Shown here in pieces: positions 8,639 to 29,876 of a stretch of DNA of 64,000 nucleotides (position 1 is the stretch's first letter; each line of letters begins with the position of its first letter). The notes below the pieces were generated by a model. The model was not told the DNA's origin and did no database searches. It worked only from the letters and a program-made list of their open reading frames with translations. Position numbers and translations under genes: made by a program. The stretch covers positions 4,463 through 68,462 of the forward strand of contig JAHDSF010000047.1 of the NCBI GenBank assembly GCA_018432935.1, given 5' to 3'. Source of the stretch: Rhodospirillales bacterium (GTDB lineage: Bacteria; Pseudomonadota; Alphaproteobacteria; Rhodospirillales; Shumkoniaceae).

Positions 8639-10066
8639 TCAGTGCTGGGGCGGCGAGAGGGCGCCCTCCACCCCGGCGGCGAGCGGCGTCGCCAGCGCGG
8701 GGAACGCCTCCCTGCAGACGCCGGCGATCCGGCGCAGCGCGTCGGGCGTCTCGCCCTCCAGGCGCATCGTGATCTTGGGCTCGGTGATCGAGCGGCGGGC
8801 GAGCAGCCAGCCGTCCGGCCACACCAGCCGCACGCCGTCGAGGCGCTCGGGAACGCCGCCGCCCAGCCCATCGGCACAGGTGGCGATGATGCGCTCGATC
8901 TCCGCCGCCGGAAGCGCCAGCCGCAGGTCCTCGGTCATGAACATCGGCGGCAGCGCATCGACCAGTTCGGCCAGGCCCGTATCCTGTCCCGCCAGCCAGG
9001 AGGCCAGCAGGAGCGACGTGTGGAGCGGGTCGTCGCGCGCCTCGATCTCGCCCAGGAATACGTGCCCCGAGAGCTCCACGCCGGCCAGGGCCTGCCGTTC
9101 CAGGACCGTACGCTTCATGAAGGCATGGCCGCTCTTGCAACGCACCGCCTGGCCGCCCAGTGCGGCGATCCGGCGGTCGAGGTGCATCGAGCATTTGATG
9201 TCGAGGATGACGTGCTGGCCGCGGTTCGGCCGCAGCGGGCCCTGGAACAGGACCATCGCCAGCCGTTCGGCCCCGAGAACCCGGCCCCGCCCATCGACCA
9301 CAGCGATGCGGTCGCCGTCGCCGTCGAAGGCGACGCCGAAATCCGCGCGCTCTTCGCGGCAGGCGGCGCGTAGCGCCTCGAGATGGCCGGGCACCGCGCA
9401 GTCGGGATGGCGCTCGCGGAACAGGCCGTCGACGGTGTCGTGGAGGGCGACGACCCGGGCGCCGAGGTGCCGGAACGCCTGCGACGCCACCCCTGACAGA
9501 CAGCCGTTGCCGGGGTCGACGGCGACCGTCAGCCGCTCGATGCCGCGGCCGCGGAAACCGGCCTCGACATCGGCAAGGTAGTCGTCGACGATGCCGTCCC
9601 ACCGGCGCAGCCGTGCCTTGGGAATCGGGCCCCCCGCGGGGAAAGAGGACGCGGCCTCGGCCAGGCCCAGGATGTCGCCCGGGGTCGGCGGAAGGGCCCC
9701 GGCCATCAGCTTGAGGCCGTTCCAGGAGGGCGGGTTGTGGGAGGCGGTGATGATCGCGCTGCCCTGCGCCTTCCGCCGGGCCTTGGCCCAGTAGATCGCG
9801 GGTGTCGGCACCCGCTCGCCGAGATCGATGACCGTCAGGGCATGCCGTTCGAGGCCGGACAGAAAGCTCTTGCGCAGCGCCGGCGTCGATGCCCTGGCGT
9901 CGCCGCCGACCACGACCAGACCCGGCGCCAGGTCGCCTGCCGCGGGTTGCGCCGCCAGCGCCCGCCCGTACGCCCAGCCGACCTTCTCGAACAGGGACTC
10001 GTCGAGCTCGTCCGGGTAAACGCCGCGAATGTCGCAGTCCTTGAAGGCGCGCGTGTCGACCGCCAT
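8639..10066 (-). CDS. Phosphomannomutase/phosphoglucomutase (alpha-D-phosphohexomutase)
   Basis: Uses an internal ATG of ORF 8639..11122 (MAVDTRAFKDCDIRGVY...). Active-site loop TASHNPPSWNG and Mg loop FDGDGDR. The start overlaps the FGGY kinase stop (ATGA at 10063-10066). Confidence 0.9.
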   Translation of the reverse strand: MAVDTRAFKDCDIRGVYPDELDESLFEKVGWAYGRALAAQPAAGDLAPGLVVVGGDARASTPALRKSFLSGLERHALTVIDLGERVPTPAIYWAKARRKAQGSAIITASHNPPSWNGLKLMAGALPPTPGDILGLAEAASSFPAGGPIPKARLRRWDGIVDDYLADVEAGFRGRGIERLTVAVDPGNGCLSGVASQAFRHLGARVVALHDTVDGLFRERHPDCAVPGHLEALRAACREERADFGVAFDGDGDRIAVVDGRGRVLGAERLAMVLFQGPLRPNRGQHVILDIKCSMHLDRRIAALGGQAVRCKSGHAFMKRTVLERQALAGVELSGHVFLGEIEARDDPLHTSLLLASWLAGQDTGLAELVDALPPMFMTEDLRLALPAAEIERIIATCADGLGGGVPERLDGVRLVWPDGWLLARRSITEPKITMRLEGETPDALRRIAGVCREAFPALATPLAAGVEGALSPPQH

Positions 10067-22219: not shown

Positions 22220-22266
22220 CAGCACCGCCATACTCCGGACCCGCGACGAGAGTTGACCAGGAGCAG

Positions 22267-22283
22267 CTCGGCACGACGCCGAG
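22267..22283 (+). terminator. Possible intrinsic terminator after the MBL-fold gene
   Basis: CTCGGC-acgac-GCCGAG (6-bp stem) followed by the T-rich stretch tctgcttctgg. Confidence 0.35.
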
Positions 22284-22438
22284 TCTGCTTCTGGCGCCGC
22301 CCTGCCGATGGATCGGGGCGGGACGCCTCTGCTCCGTCACCGACGTCAGGTGTCCGCCAGCCCGGCCATGCGAGACTGTAGCCCGGCGCCCTCCTGATGG
22401 GCCTCAGCAGACGGGCGAATCGTCCCCACATTGGAGCA

Positions 22439-22861
22439 ATGCCGCTTCTCAGCATCGTGCTGATCGTGACCTTGCTTCCGCTCTGCGCCTATGCCGGCCT
22501 GGCTCTCGCCGTCGGCCGCGAGCGCGTCTGGGAAACCGTGTTCGGTTCAGTCGGGCCTCCCCCGTCGGATTCCGAGCGTTCGGCATGGATGCGTCTCCTC
22601 GAGCAAGAGGGCGCGCACCGCCTTGCCGAGACGGAAAACCAGATTGATGTGGAGGTCCGAACTCGATGGCTGCGGTTTCCCGACCACGTCACCATCAGGC
22701 TTCTGGCATTGCAGGATGGGTTCTCCACGGTCGTCGTCTACAGCCGGGCGGTGTACGGCCTCTACGATTTCGGCGTGAACCGAAAACGTGTTCGCTCCTG
22801 GCTGCAAGGACTGAAGGCCGAACTCGGATCGTTGCCGACCGACTCCGCTGGCCGCTCCTGA
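22439..22861 (+). CDS. DUF1499 domain-containing protein
   Basis: ORF 22397..22861 with an N-terminal TM helix (MPLLSIVLIVTLLPLCAYAGLALAV) and the block YSRAVYGLYDFGVNRKRV, reminiscent of DUF1499. Start at 22439 or 22397. Confidence 0.65.
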   Translation: MPLLSIVLIVTLLPLCAYAGLALAVGRERVWETVFGSVGPPPSDSERSAWMRLLEQEGAHRLAETENQIDVEVRTRWLRFPDHVTIRLLALQDGFSTVVVYSRAVYGLYDFGVNRKRVRSWLQGLKAELGSLPTDSAGRS

Positions 22862-22863
22862 TC

Positions 22864-23268
22864 GTGCTCGCGCTGGTCACCGCCAGACCAGCCGATGCGG
22901 CACAGCTGGCCGTCACCGTCCATAACGTCGCCAGTGATCTCGGGCGCGTCCTGGTCGCTGTCTGTACACCCGACAGTTTCCTGAAGGCGGGCTGCCCCTA
23001 CACGGCGGCGAAGCCTGCGCAGGCTGGCAGCGTGACCGTGATCGTCAGCGGAGTGCCGGCCGGCACCTACGCCGTCCAGGCCTTCCATGACGCGAACGAG
23101 AATTTGGATATCGATCGCAACTTCATCGGCTTGCCCACCGAGGGAATCGGCTTTGGCAACGATGCCCAGATGCGCTTCGGGCCGCCCCGCTATGCCGACG
23201 CGGCGGTCGCGATCGACGAACCGATCACGCGAACCGCCTTGAGCCTGCGCTACTTCACGGGCCACTGA
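22864..23268 (+). CDS. DUF2141 domain-containing protein (secreted)
   Basis: C-terminal part of ORF 22666..23268 with blocks FHDANENLDIDRNFIGLPTEGIGFGND. The only canonical in-frame start after the DUF1499 stop is GTG 22864. However, the in-frame upstream residues RLRWPLLIVLALVTARPADA look like the true signal peptide. Confidence 0.6.
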   Translation: MLALVTARPADAAQLAVTVHNVASDLGRVLVAVCTPDSFLKAGCPYTAAKPAQAGSVTVIVSGVPAGTYAVQAFHDANENLDIDRNFIGLPTEGIGFGNDAQMRFGPPRYADAAVAIDEPITRTALSLRYFTGH

Positions 23269-24737
23269 ACCCGATCCCGAAGAGCCCGCAGCAGCGCCAG
23301 AACGGCTGACCGCCGGACGGCGCCGCGGCCGTGGATTGCCCGCAATGCCGCCTGCATCAGAGCTTCGTCGCCCCTGCCCAGAGGATCGAAATGCACGTAC
23401 AGACGCCCGCGCCGGACGCTTACGGTCTTCACCCGGGTCATCTCCAGCAGTCCTTCGGCTCCCCGGGTCACCCCCCAGCCGCTGTTGTGCCGGCCACCGA
23501 ACGGCAGGCGCGGGTCGGCGGTCGGCACGATGAGATCGTTGATGGTCACGCTCCCCGCGTCGACCCGGCAGGCGAGACGCCTGGCGGCCGACTCGAGCCC
23601 GAAGATCGACGCGCCAAGGGCAAAGGGGCTTTGGGCGCAGACAGCCAGCGCCTCCTCCTCGTCCGCGACCGGAACCAGGCTCAATACCGGAGCGAAGAAT
23701 TCCTCGTGCAGCAACTCCATGCCGGGCCGAACATCCGCGACGACCAGTGGCGTCATCGTCGCCTCGCCAGGGTCGGGAGTGGTGCCGACCAGCCGCGCCC
23801 CCGACCCGATGGCGTCGTCGAGCAGCCGCTTGACTTTCCTTCGTGCGCCCTCCGACACCGGGACCGGCAGCGCCACGCGAAGGGCTTCAGCGAGCTTCTG
23901 CTCCAGCGCGAAGGCGTCCCTGCGTGATATGAACACCCTCCGCGGAGCAATGCACGTGGCCGATCCGTTCAGTCGCAAGCCAAACTGCAGGGCTCGGGAA
24001 ACCAGGTCGAGGTTGGCGCCGGGCAGAACGAAGACGGCATCGTTCCCCGACAACTCCATCGTCGCAGGAACAATCTGGCGCTTCAGGGCGGCCATCAGGC
24101 GCCGGCCTGTCTCGGCAGACCCCGTCAGCACCAGCTTGTCGACGCCGGCGGCAATGGCCGTCGTCGCGTCTTCGGGCCGGTCGCCGAGGAGCTGCAGCAG
24201 CCGGTTCGGCAAGCCCGCATCCTCCAGCCAGCCGGCCAGCGCGGCCACCGGCGCAGCATAGCCAGGCGCCGGCTTGACCAGCACCGCATTTCCGGCGGCC
24301 AACGCCTGCAACAGCTGCACGCCCGGCAGCAGCAAGGGGTAGTTGGAGGGGCCGATGACCAGAACAATACCGAAGGGTTCCCGCCTCACCTCTGCCGTGA
24401 CTCCCGGAAGCCACGCCGGCCGGCCGCGTCGGCCAACGCGGCGCGGCGCCAGCAGGCGGGCCGCCTCCCGTTCCAGAAAACGGCAGGCCTCCGCCAGCGG
24501 GATGATCTCGGCGGCCAGGCTTTCGGCCGGCTGGCGTCCCGGAACCGTCGCCAGACTGTCGACCAGCAGCTTGGCCTCGTCCGCAATCCGATGGCGCAAT
24601 GCGCGGATCACCTGAACCCGTTTCGCAACCGGGATTGCCGCCCAGTCAATTTGCGCTTGCCGCATTTCCACCATTGGTGGACGCATCGCCCCGCCAAAGG
24701 AGGTGAGCGTGTTGTTGTGCTCCATTTGCCGGTCCAT
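23250..24737 (-). CDS. aldH: Aldehyde dehydrogenase family protein (candidate diapocarotenoid aldehyde dehydrogenase)
   Basis: ORF 23250..24764 with ALDH blocks VLVKPAP, MELSGND (catalytic Glu region) and NGSATCIAPRR (catalytic Cys). The start is uncertain. MDRQ at 24737 has GAGG 6 nt upstream; other ATGs lie at 24764, 24725, 24686 and 24665. Confidence 0.8.
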   Translation of the reverse strand: MDRQMEHNNTLTSFGGAMRPPMVEMRQAQIDWAAIPVAKRVQVIRALRHRIADEAKLLVDSLATVPGRQPAESLAAEIIPLAEACRFLEREAARLLAPRRVGRRGRPAWLPGVTAEVRREPFGIVLVIGPSNYPLLLPGVQLLQALAAGNAVLVKPAPGYAAPVAALAGWLEDAGLPNRLLQLLGDRPEDATTAIAAGVDKLVLTGSAETGRRLMAALKRQIVPATMELSGNDAVFVLPGANLDLVSRALQFGLRLNGSATCIAPRRVFISRRDAFALEQKLAEALRVALPVPVSEGARRKVKRLLDDAIGSGARLVGTTPDPGEATMTPLVVADVRPGMELLHEEFFAPVLSLVPVADEEEALAVCAQSPFALGASIFGLESAARRLACRVDAGSVTINDLIVPTADPRLPFGGRHNSGWGVTRGAEGLLEMTRVKTVSVRRGRLYVHFDPLGRGDEALMQAALRAIHGRGAVRRSAVLALLRALRDRVQWPVK

Positions 24738-24784
24738 GTATCGCCTCGACCGGAACGTTTGCATGATCGAGGACTACGGCAAGA

Positions 24785-26332
24785 ATGCATCGACGCGTCG
24801 TGATCATAGGGGCGGGGCCCGGTGGTCTGGCCGCCGCCATGCTTCTCGCGTTGACCGGCGCCCAAGTCACGGTTCTGGAGAAGCGCAGCCGCGTCGGCGG
24901 ACGGACCGCCACACTGGAGATCGGGGGATTTCGCTTCGATGCAGGCCCCACCTTTTTCCTGTATCCCCGGGTTCTCGAGGAGATCTTCGCAGCTTGCGGG
25001 TGGCGCCTGGCGAACGAGGTGGAGCTGATCCGCCTCGACCCGCTCTACCGTCTGGTATTCGAGGGCGGCGAACACCTGCGCATGTATTCCGATCACCAAC
25101 GCCTTGCGGCAGAGCTGGGACGTCTCAGCCCGCCCGTTGCCCAGGAATTCCCCCGGTTCCTGGCCGACAACAATGCCAAGCTGGAGGCTTTCAGGCCGAT
25201 TCTCGGGTCCTCATTCGACGGCGTTCGGGATCTGCTCACAGGGCCGGTACTGAAGGCTCTGCGGCATCTCCGCCCGCACCTGTCGCTGGACGAGGATTTG
25301 TCTCGCTACTTCTCGGATCCTCGCATCCGGCTCGCCTTTTCGTTCCAGAGCAAGTACCTGGGAATGTCGCCCTATCGGTGCCCCAGCCTGTTCTCGATCC
25401 TGTCGTTCCTGGAGCACGGCCACGGGGTCTTTCACCCCCGCGGGGGGTGCGGCGCTGTCACGGAAACGATGGCACGGCTCGCACGTGCGATGGGGGTAGC
25501 GATCCGGACCGATGAAGCGGTGCGTCACATCAGGTTTGCAGAACGGCGGGCGGTGGAGGTGCGCACCGATCGCAGCGAATATCCGCTCGACGCCCTTGTC
25601 ATCAATGCCGATTTCGCAAAGGCGATGATGACGCTGGTCCCCGACGACCTGCGCCGGCGCTGGTCGGACTCGCAGATCGCCCGCAAGAAGTTCTCCTTCT
25701 CGACCTTCATGATGTATCTCGGCATCGAGGGGCGGGTCGATCAGCTCGACCACCATACCATCTACCTGGTCGGGGATTACGCGCGGAACCTTGCCGAGGT
25801 CGAAGCCGGACGGGAGTTGCCGCAAAGCCCCTCCTTCTACGTTCAGAATGCGTGCGTCACCGATCCGAAACAGGCGCCTGCGGGCTGCAGTACCCTCTAT
25901 GTCCTCGTCCCGGTCGGCCATCAAAGCGGCCATGTCGACTGGCTGGTCGAGAAGACCCGCTTCCGGGCGCTCGTCCTGAGGAGCCTGGAAAAGCTTGGGA
26001 TCGATAATCTGGAAGCCCGGATCAAGGTCGAGCGGATCGTCACCCCGGCCGATTGGGAACGCGACTTTGCCCTTTATCGTGGCGCTACGTTCAATCTCGC
26101 GCACAGCTTGGACCAGATGCTGCACCGGCGCCCGCACAACCGTTTCGAGGATCTGGACGGCGTTTACCTTGTCGGCGGCGGCACCCACCCCGGCAGCGGC
26201 CTGCCGGTGATTTTCGAGAGCGCCCGCATTACCGCCCGTCTGCTCGCCAACGACCTGGGCCTTGCGGCGCCCTGGCCCGAGCAGGCGGGGGCCGAGGCCG
26301 CACTGCCGAGTCTGGAGAGAAGCGCTTCATGA
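24785..26332 (+). CDS. crtN: CrtI-family desaturase, CrtN-like (4,4'-diapophytoene/dehydrosqualene desaturase)
   Basis: 515-aa ORF with FAD motif VVIIGAGPGGLAAA. The block FSFQSKYLGMSPYRCPSLFSILSFLEHGHGVFHPRGG parallels my recollection of S. aureus CrtN (FQTLYIGIDPKRGPSLYSIIPMIE...). The C-terminus has GGGTHPGSGLP. Confidence 0.8.
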   Translation: MHRRVVIIGAGPGGLAAAMLLALTGAQVTVLEKRSRVGGRTATLEIGGFRFDAGPTFFLYPRVLEEIFAACGWRLANEVELIRLDPLYRLVFEGGEHLRMYSDHQRLAAELGRLSPPVAQEFPRFLADNNAKLEAFRPILGSSFDGVRDLLTGPVLKALRHLRPHLSLDEDLSRYFSDPRIRLAFSFQSKYLGMSPYRCPSLFSILSFLEHGHGVFHPRGGCGAVTETMARLARAMGVAIRTDEAVRHIRFAERRAVEVRTDRSEYPLDALVINADFAKAMMTLVPDDLRRRWSDSQIARKKFSFSTFMMYLGIEGRVDQLDHHTIYLVGDYARNLAEVEAGRELPQSPSFYVQNACVTDPKQAPAGCSTLYVLVPVGHQSGHVDWLVEKTRFRALVLRSLEKLGIDNLEARIKVERIVTPADWERDFALYRGATFNLAHSLDQMLHRRPHNRFEDLDGVYLVGGGTHPGSGLPVIFESARITARLLANDLGLAAPWPEQAGAEAALPSLERSAS

Positions 26333-27846
26333 TTTCGGACCGGGTGGCCGTGATTGGCGGGGGGCTGGGAGGTCTCGCCGCGGCGGTCGTACTGGCGGCG
26401 CGCGGCCACCAGGTCGTGCTGTTTGAAAAAAACCCGTGGCTTGGCGGCAAGGCTGCGGTCCTGCGAGAGGGCGGCTATCGCTTCGACATGGGACCGACCA
26501 TTCTGACGGTTCCGCGCGTCCTGCGTCGGATCTTTCAGGAGGCCGGCCGCGACCTGGAACAGGAACTGCCGTTGGTGCGCCTCGATCCGCAATGGCGGTG
26601 CTTTTTCGACGACGGCGCGGTGCTGGATCTGGTTGAAGACCCGGACACGATGGCGGCCGCCTTCGACCGCTTTTCTCCCGGTCACGGGATCGGCGACGGC
26701 TATCGCCGGTTCCTGGCGCGATCCCAAAGGCTTCACGACATCTCGGAACGGTTCTTCTTCTGGAAGCCCGTCGGAGACATCAAGGACACCATCGATTTCC
26801 GGCGCAACTTGAACCCGGCCGTGCTGGCCGATGTGCTGGCTCTTGGCTTGGGCACCACCGTGGCCGAGACCATTCGCCGACATGTGCCCGAGGCGCGGGT
26901 CGCCCAGATGCTGGACCACTTCACCCAGTATGTCGGATCGTCCCCTTATGGCTCTCCTGCCGTGCTGTGCGCCATCGCCCACATGCAGACCAGCGAGGGC
27001 GTCTGGTATCCCGTCGGCGGTACTGGGGCCGTGCCTCTGGCGCTGGAAAAGCTGGCGCGAACCCTCGGCGTCGAATTTCGGCTGGGAAGCGGCGTCTCAC
27101 GCATCGTCCTCGAGAAGGGCCGGGCGCGGGCCGTGGAGATCGAAGGCCATGAACGGCTGCCGGTCTCTGCCGTCGTCTCCAACATGGATGCGATTCGCAC
27201 CTATCGGGATCTGGTCGGCGGCACGCCGGCGGCGCGGTTCCTCAGGCGTCGCCGCCAGGAGCCAGCCTGCTCCGGCGTGGTGTTCTACCTGGGTCTTTCG
27301 CGACGCTACGACCATCTGCTGCACCACGACTTCGTCTTTTCCCGCGACCCCAAGGAAGAGTTCGACTGGATCTACCGACGGGGCGAACCGGCTCCAGATC
27401 CCAGCTGCTATCTTGCGGCCCCGGCCCGCAGCGATCCCACCGTCGCTCCCCCGGACGGGGAGGCGTTGTATGTGCTTGTCCACACCCCCTACCTGCGCCC
27501 CCATCACGACTGGAAACGCCTGCTGCCCGAGTATCGCAGAACCGTCTTGGACAAGCTGAAACGAACGGCCGGTCTGGCCGATCTCGAGGATCGCATCCGC
27601 TTCGAGCGTGTGCTCACGCCGCTGGACATCCATCAGCGCTATCAGGTCCTCGATGGCGCCATCTACGGGTTGGCCAGCCATGGCCGTTTTGTCGGTGCCT
27701 TCAAGCCCGGCAATCGGTCCCGCGAGGTTCCGGGCTTGTATCTGGCCGGAGGCGCCGCCCACCCCGGCCCCGGAATGCCGATGGTGCTGATGTCCGGCTG
27801 GATCGCCGCCGATACGCTGGACAGGGATCTGACCCAGGGGGGATAG
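26329..27846 (+). CDS. crtP: CrtI-family oxidase, CrtP-like (4,4'-diaponeurosporene oxygenase)
   Basis: Uses an internal ATG of ORF 26053..27846 (MISDRVAVIGGGLGGLAAA). The blocks RLDPQWRCFFDDG and QYVGSSPYGSPAVLCAIAHMQTSEGVWYPVGG parallel my recollection of S. aureus CrtP. The start overlaps the crtN stop (ATGA at 26329-26332). Confidence 0.8.
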   Translation: MISDRVAVIGGGLGGLAAAVVLAARGHQVVLFEKNPWLGGKAAVLREGGYRFDMGPTILTVPRVLRRIFQEAGRDLEQELPLVRLDPQWRCFFDDGAVLDLVEDPDTMAAAFDRFSPGHGIGDGYRRFLARSQRLHDISERFFFWKPVGDIKDTIDFRRNLNPAVLADVLALGLGTTVAETIRRHVPEARVAQMLDHFTQYVGSSPYGSPAVLCAIAHMQTSEGVWYPVGGTGAVPLALEKLARTLGVEFRLGSGVSRIVLEKGRARAVEIEGHERLPVSAVVSNMDAIRTYRDLVGGTPAARFLRRRRQEPACSGVVFYLGLSRRYDHLLHHDFVFSRDPKEEFDWIYRRGEPAPDPSCYLAAPARSDPTVAPPDGEALYVLVHTPYLRPHHDWKRLLPEYRRTVLDKLKRTAGLADLEDRIRFERVLTPLDIHQRYQVLDGAIYGLASHGRFVGAFKPGNRSREVPGLYLAGGAAHPGPGMPMVLMSGWIAADTLDRDLTQGG

Positions 27847-27850
27847 GGCT

Positions 27851-28624
27851 ATGGTGCCCAGCCGTTCGCCGTCGCTGGTTCGCTTTTTCGGCGGCGTCAT
27901 GGCACGCGCAATGCGGCGAAGCTTCCATGCCGTGAGGCTTGCGCGTCCCGGGTGGCCCGATCTGCCGCCAGACCGACCGGTGATCTGCTACCTGAACCAT
28001 CCGTCCTGGTGGGATCCGGCTTTCGTGATCGTGCTCGCCACCACGCAGTTCGCCGACCGGCCCGGTTTTGGTCCCATCGATCTCGAGATGCTCCAGAAGT
28101 ACCGCTTCCTCGGCCGCATCGGCCTGTTCGGGATCGAGCCCGGCTCGCAACGCGGTGCCGCGGCGTTCCTGCGCACCGGTCTGGCCATTCTGCGGGATCC
28201 TCGTGCCATGTTGTGGATCACTGCCGAAGGTGCGTTCTCCGATAGCCGCGTCCGTCCGGTGCGGCTTCGCCCCGGACTCGCTCACCTGGTCCGTCGCGTG
28301 CCCGACGCGGTGACCGTGCCGCTGGCGCTGGAGTACACGTTCTGGGACGAGCGGACCCCCGAAGCGCTGGCTCTCTTTGGTCCCCCCAGGCCCGCATCGT
28401 GCTTCGCAGGAATGCACGCGCTGGAAATCACGGCGAGGCTTGCAGAGCGTCTCGAGGAGACGATGGACGCCTTGAAGGGGGAGGCGGTTCGGCGCGACCC
28501 GGCGGGTTTCCATCGGCTGTTGGAGGGGTCGGTGGGTGTCGGCGGCGTCTACGACCTGTGGCGTCGCGGCAGGGCATGGCTGGCCGGGCGGAGGTTTCAT
28601 CCTGGCCACGGAGCACGCGAGTGA
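27851..28624 (+). CDS. PlsC-type (lysophospholipid) acyltransferase
   Basis: 257-aa ORF with the HX4D motif NHPSWWD and the TAEGAFS block typical of 1-acyl-sn-glycerol-3-phosphate acyltransferase-like enzymes. It starts 4 nt after the crtP stop. Confidence 0.75.
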   Translation: MVPSRSPSLVRFFGGVMARAMRRSFHAVRLARPGWPDLPPDRPVICYLNHPSWWDPAFVIVLATTQFADRPGFGPIDLEMLQKYRFLGRIGLFGIEPGSQRGAAAFLRTGLAILRDPRAMLWITAEGAFSDSRVRPVRLRPGLAHLVRRVPDAVTVPLALEYTFWDERTPEALALFGPPRPASCFAGMHALEITARLAERLEETMDALKGEAVRRDPAGFHRLLEGSVGVGGVYDLWRRGRAWLAGRRFHPGHGARE

Positions 28625-29751
28625 CGAGCGGGGATTTCTGGACGCTCCTGGCAATGCTGTCCTTGGCTTTGGCGCTGCTGCCGCTCTTGCTCGGCTTGAG
28701 CAACCTCTACCTGTACCGTGCGCCGCGAGAGGTGGGCGCAACGGGACCCGTTGCAGTTTCGGTCCTGATTCCGGCGCGGAACGAGGCGGCGACGATCGGC
28801 ACCGCCGTCGAAGCGGCATTGGCCAGCCGCGGCCTCGACCTGGAGGTCATCGTCCTCGACGATCATTCGACGGACGGCACGGCCGCGGCTGTGGAGGCGA
28901 TCGCCCGGCGCGATCCCCGCCTCCGGCTCGAAAGCGCGCCGCCGCTGCCCCCCGGATGGGCGGGCAAGCAGCACGCCTGCCACGTCCTGGCGGGGCTGGC
29001 GCGGTTCCCGGTCCTGCTGTTCCAGGATGCGGACGTTCGGCTGGCTCCGCAGGCCGTCGAGCGCATTGCCGGATTCCTCCTGGCGGGCCGGGCCGGCCTC
29101 GTCAGCGGTTTTCCGAGACAGAGGACCGAAACCTTGGCCGAGGCGATGATCGTTCCACTGATCCAGTTCCTTCTGATCGGCTATCTGCCGATGCTGCTGA
29201 TGAGGTCGACGCTCAGCCCGGGTGCCTCCGCCGGCTGCGGCCAACTCATTGCCGTCCGTCGCGACGACTACGCGCTGGCGGGCGGCCATGCGTCGATCCG
29301 AGCATCCCTGCACGACGGCATCATGCTGCCGCGAGCGTTTCGCCGGGTCGGATTATGGACAGACCTGTTCGATGCCACCGAACTGGCCGACTGCCGCATG
29401 TATTCGCGTTGGTCTGATCTGTGGCAGGGCTTCTTGAAGAACGCCACGGAGGGGATGGCGACGCCGAGGGCGCTGCCTCTGTGGACGGTCCTGCTGTTCG
29501 GTGGCCATGTTCTTCCGTGGCTGCTGCTGCCGTTCCCCGGCGCGGCGCCCGCCGCTCTTGCGGCCGTGGCCGCCGGCATGGCTTTTCGTCTGCTTCTGGC
29601 CGTTCGCTTCCGACAAAGCCTTGCCGGGGCAATTCTTCACCCGATCGGGATTCTCCTACTGCTCGCGATCCAGTGGCATGCGCTGCTCCGCGCCGCCCGA
29701 AGACGGCCTGCGTACTGGAAGGGGCGCACCTATCCATCGGACACGCGGTAA
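28621..29751 (+). CDS. crtQ: Family 2 glycosyltransferase, CrtQ-like (diapocarotenoate glycosyltransferase)
   Basis: C-terminal part of ORF 28399..29751. The GTG start at 28621 overlaps the upstream TGA (GTGA). Motifs VLIPARNE, VLDDHSTDGT, GKQHAC and FQDADV, multiple TM helices, and a C-terminal YWKGRTY resembling the S. aureus CrtQ end. Confidence 0.75.
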   Translation: MTSGDFWTLLAMLSLALALLPLLLGLSNLYLYRAPREVGATGPVAVSVLIPARNEAATIGTAVEAALASRGLDLEVIVLDDHSTDGTAAAVEAIARRDPRLRLESAPPLPPGWAGKQHACHVLAGLARFPVLLFQDADVRLAPQAVERIAGFLLAGRAGLVSGFPRQRTETLAEAMIVPLIQFLLIGYLPMLLMRSTLSPGASAGCGQLIAVRRDDYALAGGHASIRASLHDGIMLPRAFRRVGLWTDLFDATELADCRMYSRWSDLWQGFLKNATEGMATPRALPLWTVLLFGGHVLPWLLLPFPGAAPAALAAVAAGMAFRLLLAVRFRQSLAGAILHPIGILLLLAIQWHALLRAARRRPAYWKGRTYPSDTR

Positions 29752-29829
29752 GGGGCTTCTGATGCTGGTATTCTTGTCGGGAGTATGGTCCCGCCCGGAG
29801 GCGTCTGGCTGGTGTGCCCGGCGAGCCTG

Positions 29830-29865
29830 AACCCAACGCACGAACAAAACCCAATGCACGAACAA
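29830..29865 (+). repeat. Tandem 18-bp direct repeat upstream of the aldo/keto reductase gene
   Basis: AACCCAACGCACGAACA-A followed by AACCCAATGCACGAACA-A (16/17 identical), ending 12 nt before the ATG at 29877. Confidence 0.7.
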
Positions 29866-29876
29866 TGGAGCAGCCC

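Follow-up and report, generated by a model that had tools for sequence, protein, structure and literature searches.

This report concerns a cluster of five genes within a 64,000-nucleotide stretch of DNA (the window) from a Rhodospirillales bacterium of the family Shumkoniaceae (GenBank assembly GCA_018432935.1, contig JAHDSF010000047.1, positions 4,463 to 68,462). The cluster consists of an aldehyde dehydrogenase gene (aldH) that faces a block of crtN, crtP, an acyltransferase gene and a glycosyltransferase (GT) gene, and very probably provides the tailoring steps of the squalene route to C30 carotenoids. The analysis establishes directly the gene content, the orthology, the clade membership and which precursor genes are present or absent; the small remaining doubt concerns the expression of the genes and the exact end product, not the identity of the genes. 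The system is already known, the squalene route having been described in Planctopirus, Methylobacterium extorquens and Azospirillum brasilense, and the same arrangement has been published. The value of the present example is mainly one of annotation: two genes labelled 'phytoene desaturase family protein' or crtI by pipelines are read here as squalene-route CrtN and CrtP. Judging from these genes, the organism is expected to have a pink or orange colour, given by a C30 acyl-glycosyl diapocarotenoate whose synthesis would compete with that of hopanoids for squalene.

Gene content and the collinear Azospirillum locus

All five open reading frames (ORFs) are intact between 23250 and 29751 (Table 1), as confirmed by the ORF list with its translations and by Pfam and NCBIfam models. 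An earlier note, made from the sequence alone, had described a divergent aldehyde dehydrogenase facing four translationally coupled genes. Every one of these frames is found with its domains and motifs intact, and the junctions named in the note can be read directly in the DNA. The crtN and crtP genes share an ATGA overlap at 26329-26332, where the DNA reads TTCATGATT. A 4-nt gap (TAG-GGCT-ATG) separates crtP from the acyltransferase gene at 27851, and the acyltransferase and GT genes share a GTGA overlap at 28621-28624, which reads GAGTGACG. The four plus-strand genes would be translationally coupled and form one operon. The note had further proposed a late C30 carotenoid set of AldH, CrtN, CrtP, a PlsC-type acyltransferase and a CrtQ-like GT2, and on this point domains, tree and a collinear locus in A. 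brasilense Sp7 agree.

The Sp7 locus (plasmid p3, AMK58_RS25225-25200) reads DUF4126 (minus strand), aldH (minus strand), crtN, crtP, LPLAT, GT, DUF2141. Order and orientation from aldH to GT are the same as in the window, a DUF2141 gene is adjacent in both, and the squalene genes are unlinked in both. By BLASTP the proteins from AldH to GT are 62-77% identical: AldH 62% (AMK58_RS25225, likewise divergent from crtN), CrtN 69%, CrtP 77%, the acyltransferase 70% (AMK58_RS25210) and GT 73%. The DUF2141 protein is 68% identical to AMK58_RS25200, which follows GT. In Sp7, hpnCDE lies at one locus and crtNPOQ with aldH at another (PMC13274349, which cites Tiwari & Tripathi 2024). Deletion of either crtNPOQ or hpnCDE leaves the cells without pigment, and the crtNPOQ mutant accumulates squalene (PMC13274349). 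The two arrangements differ in the placement of DUF2141, which in Sp7 follows GT within the operon, whereas in the window it lies beyond aldH and is convergent with it. The RefSeq start of Sp7 crtN (AMK58_RS25220, L094:9001-10554), at locus position 9055, drops the N-terminal GxGxxG motif that binds flavin adenine dinucleotide (FAD). The true start is likely the in-frame ATG at 9001 (MERQVVI...), which aligns with residue 1 of the window CrtN.

Relatives of CrtP occur in at least 574 genomic stretches, and the best 80 were compared for synteny by tblastn. These come from Azospirillum (75-78% identity), many Acetobacteraceae, Methylobacterium/Methylorubrum, Microvirga, Planctomycetota, Verrucomicrobiota, Acidobacteriota and others. 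The order crtN-crtP-acyltransferase-GT recurs in most of the 80 loci, in Alphaproteobacteria, Planctomycetota, Verrucomicrobiota, Acidobacteriota and Ignavibacteriota, and the phyla that carry it match the distribution in PMC9907078.

Two other characterised systems are closely comparable. Methylobacterium (Methylorubrum) extorquens has the same families, a crtP-acyltransferase-GT block, HpnCDE beside shc and an LPLAT protein in place of CrtO, at 45-68% identity. Its genes are CrtN META1p3670, CrtP META1p3665, acyltransferase META1p3664, GT META1p3663 and HpnCDE META1p1815-1817 (PMC10448405; bioRxiv 10.1101/2020.12.21.423902). In strain PA1 hpnE, crtN and crtP mutants are colourless and a crtB mutant is not (bioRxiv 10.1101/2020.12.21.423902), and the product of strain AM1 is 4-[2-O-11Z-octadecenoyl-beta-glucopyranosyl]-4,4'-diapolycopenedioic acid (PMC10448405). 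However, crtN in Methylorubrum is ~4 kb from crtP with other genes between, and there is no orthologue of the cluster-type AldH, which in the window is part of the cluster. The squalene route of Planctopirus limnophila (hpnCDE, crtN, crtP, aldH, crtQ, crtO) was established through mutants, made by transposon or by deletion, and through reconstitution in E. coli (PMC9907078). It follows the same pathway logic, and the tree groups Planctomycete CrtN and CrtP with their window counterparts. The phylum is different, however, identity is 57-70%, and in the loci examined from Gemmata and Fimbriiglobus aldH does not lie next to the cluster.

The window AldH contains GSAETG at residue 215, ELSGN at 237 and TCIA, with the catalytic cysteine, at 270. 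By analogy it is predicted to convert 4,4'-diapolycopene(di)al to the (di)oic acid. Its orthologue is either divergent from crtN or located between crtN and crtP in ~30 of the 80 related loci; the former arrangement occurs in Azospirillum and some Acetobacteraceae, the latter in Verrucomicrobiota, Acidobacteriota and Ignavibacteriota. Gemmata has a 41%-identical copy elsewhere in the genome than the cluster. A search of Methylorubrum rhodesianum gave no match to the window AldH at E<=1e-30, and META1p3652 was accordingly rejected as an orthologue. Deletion of META1p3652 has no phenotype in AM1; since the window type has no Methylorubrum orthologue, this negative result does not bear on AldH. 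Among the biology touched by the cluster is this very point, as the AldH clade is missing from Methylobacterium.

The acyltransferase carries an HX4D motif (HPSWWD) at residue 50 and AEGA at 125. It is 45-48% identical to the Methylorubrum gene product encoded between crtP and GT, the position of META1p3664, which has been found by deletion and complementation to acylate the glucoside (PMC10448405). BLASTP gives no match to Staphylococcus equorum CrtO at E<=1e-3. By analogy we infer a functional counterpart of CrtO that is not homologous to it and that esterifies the sugar. The GT2 protein has the motifs DDHSTD and DAD, and hydrophobic segments at 4-32, 171-195 and 285-356. It is 27% identical to S. 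equorum CrtQ over the full length (E 5e-25), and by sequence comparison the homology to CrtQ is real. Its position corresponds to META1p3663, whose role as the GT is proven by deletion and complementation in M. extorquens AM1 (PMC10448405).

Table 1. Features of the cluster and its left flank (positions in the window).
Feature	Position	Strand	Support or remark
aldH, cluster-type aldehyde dehydrogenase	23250..24764 (longest ORF)	-	Pfam Aldedh 264 bits
crtN, FAD-dependent C30 desaturase (predicted)	24785..26332	+	crtI_fam TIGR02734 518 bits
crtP, CrtP-type diapocarotenoid oxidase (predicted)	26329..27846	+	crtI_fam TIGR02734 412 bits
PlsC/LPLAT-family acyltransferase	27851..28624	+	PF01553 28.9 bits
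crtQ-type membrane GT2 glycosyltransferase	28621..29751	+	PF00535 64 bits
DUF2141 secreted beta-sandwich protein, convergent with aldH	22666..23268	+	PF09912 93 bits
Small membrane protein, putative DUF1499-like label	22397..22861	+	inside block missing from congener

Backbone supply and phylogeny of the desaturases

The genome (5.05 Mb, 59 contigs, 99% complete) encodes exactly two crtI_fam proteins above the TIGR02734 cut-off of 238 bits, both in the window, and three SQS_PSY proteins, all on contig C40. The earlier note had seen no C30 synthase in the window and suggested that the backbone comes from elsewhere, possibly as squalene. No SQS/PSY-family gene is present in the window, and the genome-wide search for crtM or hpnCDE that the note had proposed finds hpnC, hpnD and hpnE on this other contig and no crtM. 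They belong to a hopanoid cluster, hpnC-hpnB-hpnD-hpnE-shc, on the minus strand at ~119.8-126.1 kb (L012:5834-12056). HpnC (278 bits, cut-off 250), HpnD (308 bits, cut-off 279) and HpnE (387 bits) exceed the NCBIfam equivalog cut-offs, as SHC (780 bits) does its own, and HpnB scores 514 bits. The gene between hpnC and hpnD, hpnB, is that of a glycosyltransferase. Downstream of the hopanoid cluster are HpnH-like (radical-SAM), IspH-like and HpnA-like ORFs, names that are provisional and derive from ORF starts and sizes only.

The third SQS/PSY protein (320 amino acids, C40:281169-282131, minus strand; L013:9170-10132) scores 98 bits to HpnD. In an alignment with HpnC, HpnD, CrtM and CrtB it has NQEIARIPE and GFARSVPHH where the synthases have DDxxD and DxxED. 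With neither Asp-rich motif present, it was rejected as an overlooked CrtM or CrtB. The neighbours of its gene are a superoxide dismutase (SOD) gene and yajC-secDF. Sp7 has a homologue of 39% identity beside hpnCDE and SOD (L104:7001-7924), shown there as a 'hypothetical' flanking gene. The third protein is perhaps a non-catalytic paralogue whose link to squalene genes has been conserved. The squalene genes are arranged differently in the two organisms: Sp7 hpnCDE lies beside SOD and the motif-less paralogue, with no shc match in the 15-kb locus examined, whereas here hpnCDE is inside the hopanoid cluster, together with hpnB and shc, at a distance of 155 kb from the SOD/paralogue pair. No model match to CrtB reaches the cut-off in this genome, and no active CrtM-like synthase was found. 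Because HpnC, HpnD and the motif-less paralogue are the only SQS_PSY proteins, squalene from HpnCDE is the sole available C30 (or C40) backbone and, as far as the genes indicate, is common to hopanoid and carotenoid synthesis.

Both flavoenzymes of the cluster have a GxGxxG motif, which in CrtN is GAGPGG at residue 9. The CrtP-like protein carries QWRCFFDDG at residue 88 and YVGSSPYGSPAVLCAIAHMQTSEGVWYPVGG at 201, and the CrtN-like protein carries FQSKYLGMSPYRCPSLFSIL at 187. The earlier note had matched these blocks to Staphylococcus aureus CrtP and CrtN. The CrtN pattern is literal in the window protein and in CrtN of both S. equorum and S. warneri. Those for CrtP hold in part: both are literal in the window CrtP and in squalene-route CrtP of many phyla, but have no literal match in S. 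equorum or S. warneri CrtP. Over the full length, CrtN is 30% identical to S. equorum CrtN and CrtP 32% to S. equorum CrtP.

A tree of 38 sequences was computed with IQ-TREE under LG+C20+F+G4, with the genome's own HpnE as outgroup. Its references, taken from annotated plasmid records, comprise the crtOPQMN operons of S. equorum and S. warneri, CrtI from Pantoea, Thermus, Thiodictyon, Halobaculum, Sulfitobacter and Roseobacter, and CrtD of the last two genera. Squalene-route CrtN/CrtP pairs from ten related loci were included as well, in addition to the Sp7 pair. The window CrtP falls inside a clade of all CrtP, including that of Staphylococcus (95/92), with CrtD (100/100) as a sister group outside it. 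The window CrtN groups with Methylorubrum, Azospirillum, Planctomycete and other squalene-route CrtN in one clade (97/96), and is sister to the Azospirillum pair (100/99). Five bacterial C40 CrtI form their own clade (99/100), and that of Halobaculum forms a long branch within the basal polytomy. This placement, which the note had named as a check, thus puts the proteins in the CrtP and squalene-route CrtN clades, and neither lies inside those of C40 CrtI or CrtD.

If the two proteins were instead a C40 CrtI/CrtD pair, the cluster would make a C40 carotenoid glycoside ester from phytoene. The orthologous clusters of Azospirillum and Methylobacterium, however, make C30 pigments from squalene (PMC13274349; bioRxiv 10.1101/2020.12.21.423902), none of the three SQS_PSY proteins is a phytoene synthase, and in the tree, at 95-100% support, both desaturases stand apart from the clades of C40 CrtI and CrtD. 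A C40 pathway is therefore highly improbable, even though there are sub-threshold NCBIfam matches to CrtID and CrtD (334 and 301 bits, where the cut-offs are 640 and 580) and the best matches by sequence in the PDB are Pantoea CrtI (4dgk) for CrtN and gamma-carotene desaturase (4rep) for CrtP.

The term 'staphyloxanthin-like', used in the note, is apt for the chemistry and not for membership. The Staphylococcus crtOPQMN system (reference S. equorum plasmid pC2014-2) has the same chemistry past the backbone, with desaturase, oxidase, AldH, GT2 and acyltransferase. However, its backbone is supplied by CrtM (dehydrosqualene synthase), which has no counterpart here, its gene order differs, and its CrtO is a ~157-residue protein with no detectable similarity to the window LPLAT. 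The window cluster thus departs from the staphyloxanthin operon in both backbone supply and acyltransferase family. What it combines is a CrtN-clade desaturase, a CrtP-clade oxidase, squalene genes without CrtM or CrtB, and co-clustered AldH, GT2 and acyltransferase, as in the squalene route.

Predicted pathway and origin of the cluster

In the proposed pathway HpnC, HpnD and HpnE, encoded on contig C40, would make squalene as one precursor pool for hopanoids and the carotenoid. CrtN would desaturate squalene stepwise to 4,4'-diapolycopene-type polyenes, CrtP would oxidise the terminal methyl groups to aldehydes, and AldH (23250-~24737) would turn the aldehydes into carboxylic acids. The membrane GT2 would then esterify a carboxyl with a hexose, and the PlsC/LPLAT acyltransferase would acylate the sugar. 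The predicted product, an acyl-glycosyl 4,4'-diapolycopene(di)oate, would resemble the pink pigments of M. extorquens AM1 and A. brasilense. We infer the reaction order, the sugar esterification and the acylation from characterised orthologues.

The enzymes could also be imagined in a non-pigment use of squalene or of a hopanoid intermediate, for example in partly desaturated or oxidised, glycosylated triterpenoid membrane lipids with the GT acting like HpnB. The best NCBIfam match of the GT is HpnB (118 bits, cut-off 379), the protein is 34% identical to the genome's own HpnB paralogue, and non-pigment roles are conceivable for lineages with CrtN alone (PMC9907078). The full set of CrtN, CrtP, AldH, GT and acyltransferase is, however, characteristic of pigment producers. 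In Azospirillum, orthologues with 62-77% identity have a genetic link to pigment (PMC13274349), as do more distant syntenic ones in Methylobacterium (PMC10448405), and a non-pigment role appears extremely improbable beside the squalene-route pigment pathway.

The distribution of the cluster was surveyed in 41 genomes: this one, a congener, five others from the family, and 34 that represent 33 further families of the order. CrtP is present in this genome only, being missing from the congener and the five family relatives, and HpnE is present in 40 of the 41. The ~7.6-kb block at 22,221-29,875 of the window has no counterpart in the congener, where the flanking genes are found at 76-85% DNA identity. 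Identity to Azospirillum is 62-78% for the crt genes, 61% for SOD and 48-52% for HpnC and HpnE; SecD, at 54-56%, marks the host as other than an Azospirillum. The G+C content at third codon positions (GC3) of the five carotenoid genes is 0.78-0.81, which corresponds to the 8th-15th percentile of 2,368 long coding-like ORFs (genome median 0.877). The whole block was probably acquired laterally, most likely from an Azospirillum-like donor by a lineage that already made squalene for hopanoids. This picture fits the transfer-driven history proposed in PMC9907078. If so, the gain would look recent, and it would have joined a pigment branch to a squalene supply already in place for hopanoids. With this locus a further lineage would enter the patchy, transfer-driven distribution reported by Santana-Molina et al. 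2022, and the cluster is a clean example of pigment genes far closer to Azospirillum than the host's own squalene genes are.

Absence from all six genus and family relatives sampled and a GC3 that is low for the genome are also what a recently acquired passenger would show, one that is silent or decaying and gives no pigment under normal conditions. Nevertheless, all frames are open, the catalytic motifs are intact, translational coupling is preserved, and the 62-78% identity to the Azospirillum orthologues comes without frameshifts or stops. A scan of 22.2-30 kb found no sigma-70-like promoter, and Sp7 makes only basal pigment unless an extracytoplasmic function (ECF) sigma factor is activated (PMC13274349), both of which would suit a silent passenger. 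On balance we consider a passenger improbable and retain a functional pigment cluster.

Several observations weigh against a squalene-route pigment cluster of lateral origin. The M. extorquens crtP mutant is colourless rather than coloured (PMC10448405), so that even for model strains the exact order in which CrtN and CrtP act is not settled. Strain PA1 of the same species carries the genes for GT and acyltransferase yet is reported to make unglycosylated products (PMC10448405), and the presence of the genes is thus no guarantee of the final structure. In the tree, squalene-route CrtN, Staphylococcus CrtN and CrtI join in a basal polytomy, and in BLAST the window CrtN matches Pantoea CrtI (270 bits) marginally better than it does S. 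equorum CrtN (251 bits). Its assignment to the C30 pathway follows from its clade with characterised squalene-route enzymes and from the lack of a phytoene synthase in the genome. The argument for lateral transfer uses one housekeeping protein and, at the order level, about one genome per family. Finally, no clean insertion site was found in the congener, where the two flanks lie apart and among other neighbours: the left one (aldolase, GntR, MBL) is on contig C1, and the genes of the right one (AKR, YjbR, aminotransferase, tag) are on contig C8.

The aldH-crtN spacer and flanking genes

With the longest aldH ORF, the two divergent genes would start just 20 bp apart. When AldH is aligned with its Azospirillum counterparts, the true start is likely Met10 (24737) or Met14 (24725), which gives a spacer of ~50-60 bp, compared with ~26 to 99 bp in related divergent loci. 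The spacer at 24738-24784 contains an element, GGAACGTTTG, that resembles GGAGCGTTTG in the same spacer of four Azospirillum loci. The shape GGA(A/G)CGTTTG is common to both, but its distance to the crtN ATG differs (27 nt in the window and 9 nt in Azospirillum), and it is missing from the aldH-crtN spacers of Acetobacteraceae. For these two reasons it is not claimed as an operator. Terminator-like hairpins in 22.2-30 kb number six against 4.3 expected, which is the chance level, and all are inside genes; the scan, for promoters and terminators alike, is uninformative.

The two genes to the left of aldH were considered as possible further components. Neighbours were surveyed in 90 loci, comprising the 80 related loci and 10 reference loci from public plasmid records. 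Homologues of the putative DUF1499-like gene are near the cluster in only two of these, and it was rejected as part of the system. A DUF2141 homologue is beside the cluster in 49 of the 90, directly after GT or after crtN; almost all of these loci are from Alphaproteobacteria, with two from Acidobacteriota. The role of this recurrent neighbour is a second point of biology that the cluster touches. In published work DUF2141 is mentioned only as a crtG neighbour in Sphingomonadales (PMC5989583).

The DUF2141 domain covers residues 83-185 of the longest ORF and has two near-invariant cysteines. An alignment-based AlphaFold model is a confident beta-sandwich with a predicted local distance difference test (pLDDT) score of 93.6, compared with 49 for a single-sequence model. 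Foldseek finds no significant match in the PDB; the matches are to weak, generic beta-sandwiches (CBM20, pilins, DUF4876) with a best E of 0.02 and a template modelling (TM) score <0.5, so no function follows from the structure. That DUF2141 is a real sixth component of squalene-route carotenoid clusters is a tentative suggestion, and on the doubtful side. One possible role would be that of a periplasmic binder or chaperone that moves the acyl-glycosyl carotenoid to the outer membrane, where M. extorquens holds its carotenoids. The frame of the gene has no ATG, GTG or TTG between 22666 and a GTG at 22864, and a start at 22864 would cut into the predicted signal peptide (RLRWPLLIVLALVTARPADA). 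The in-frame near-cognate codons are CTG at 22798 and ATC at 22828.

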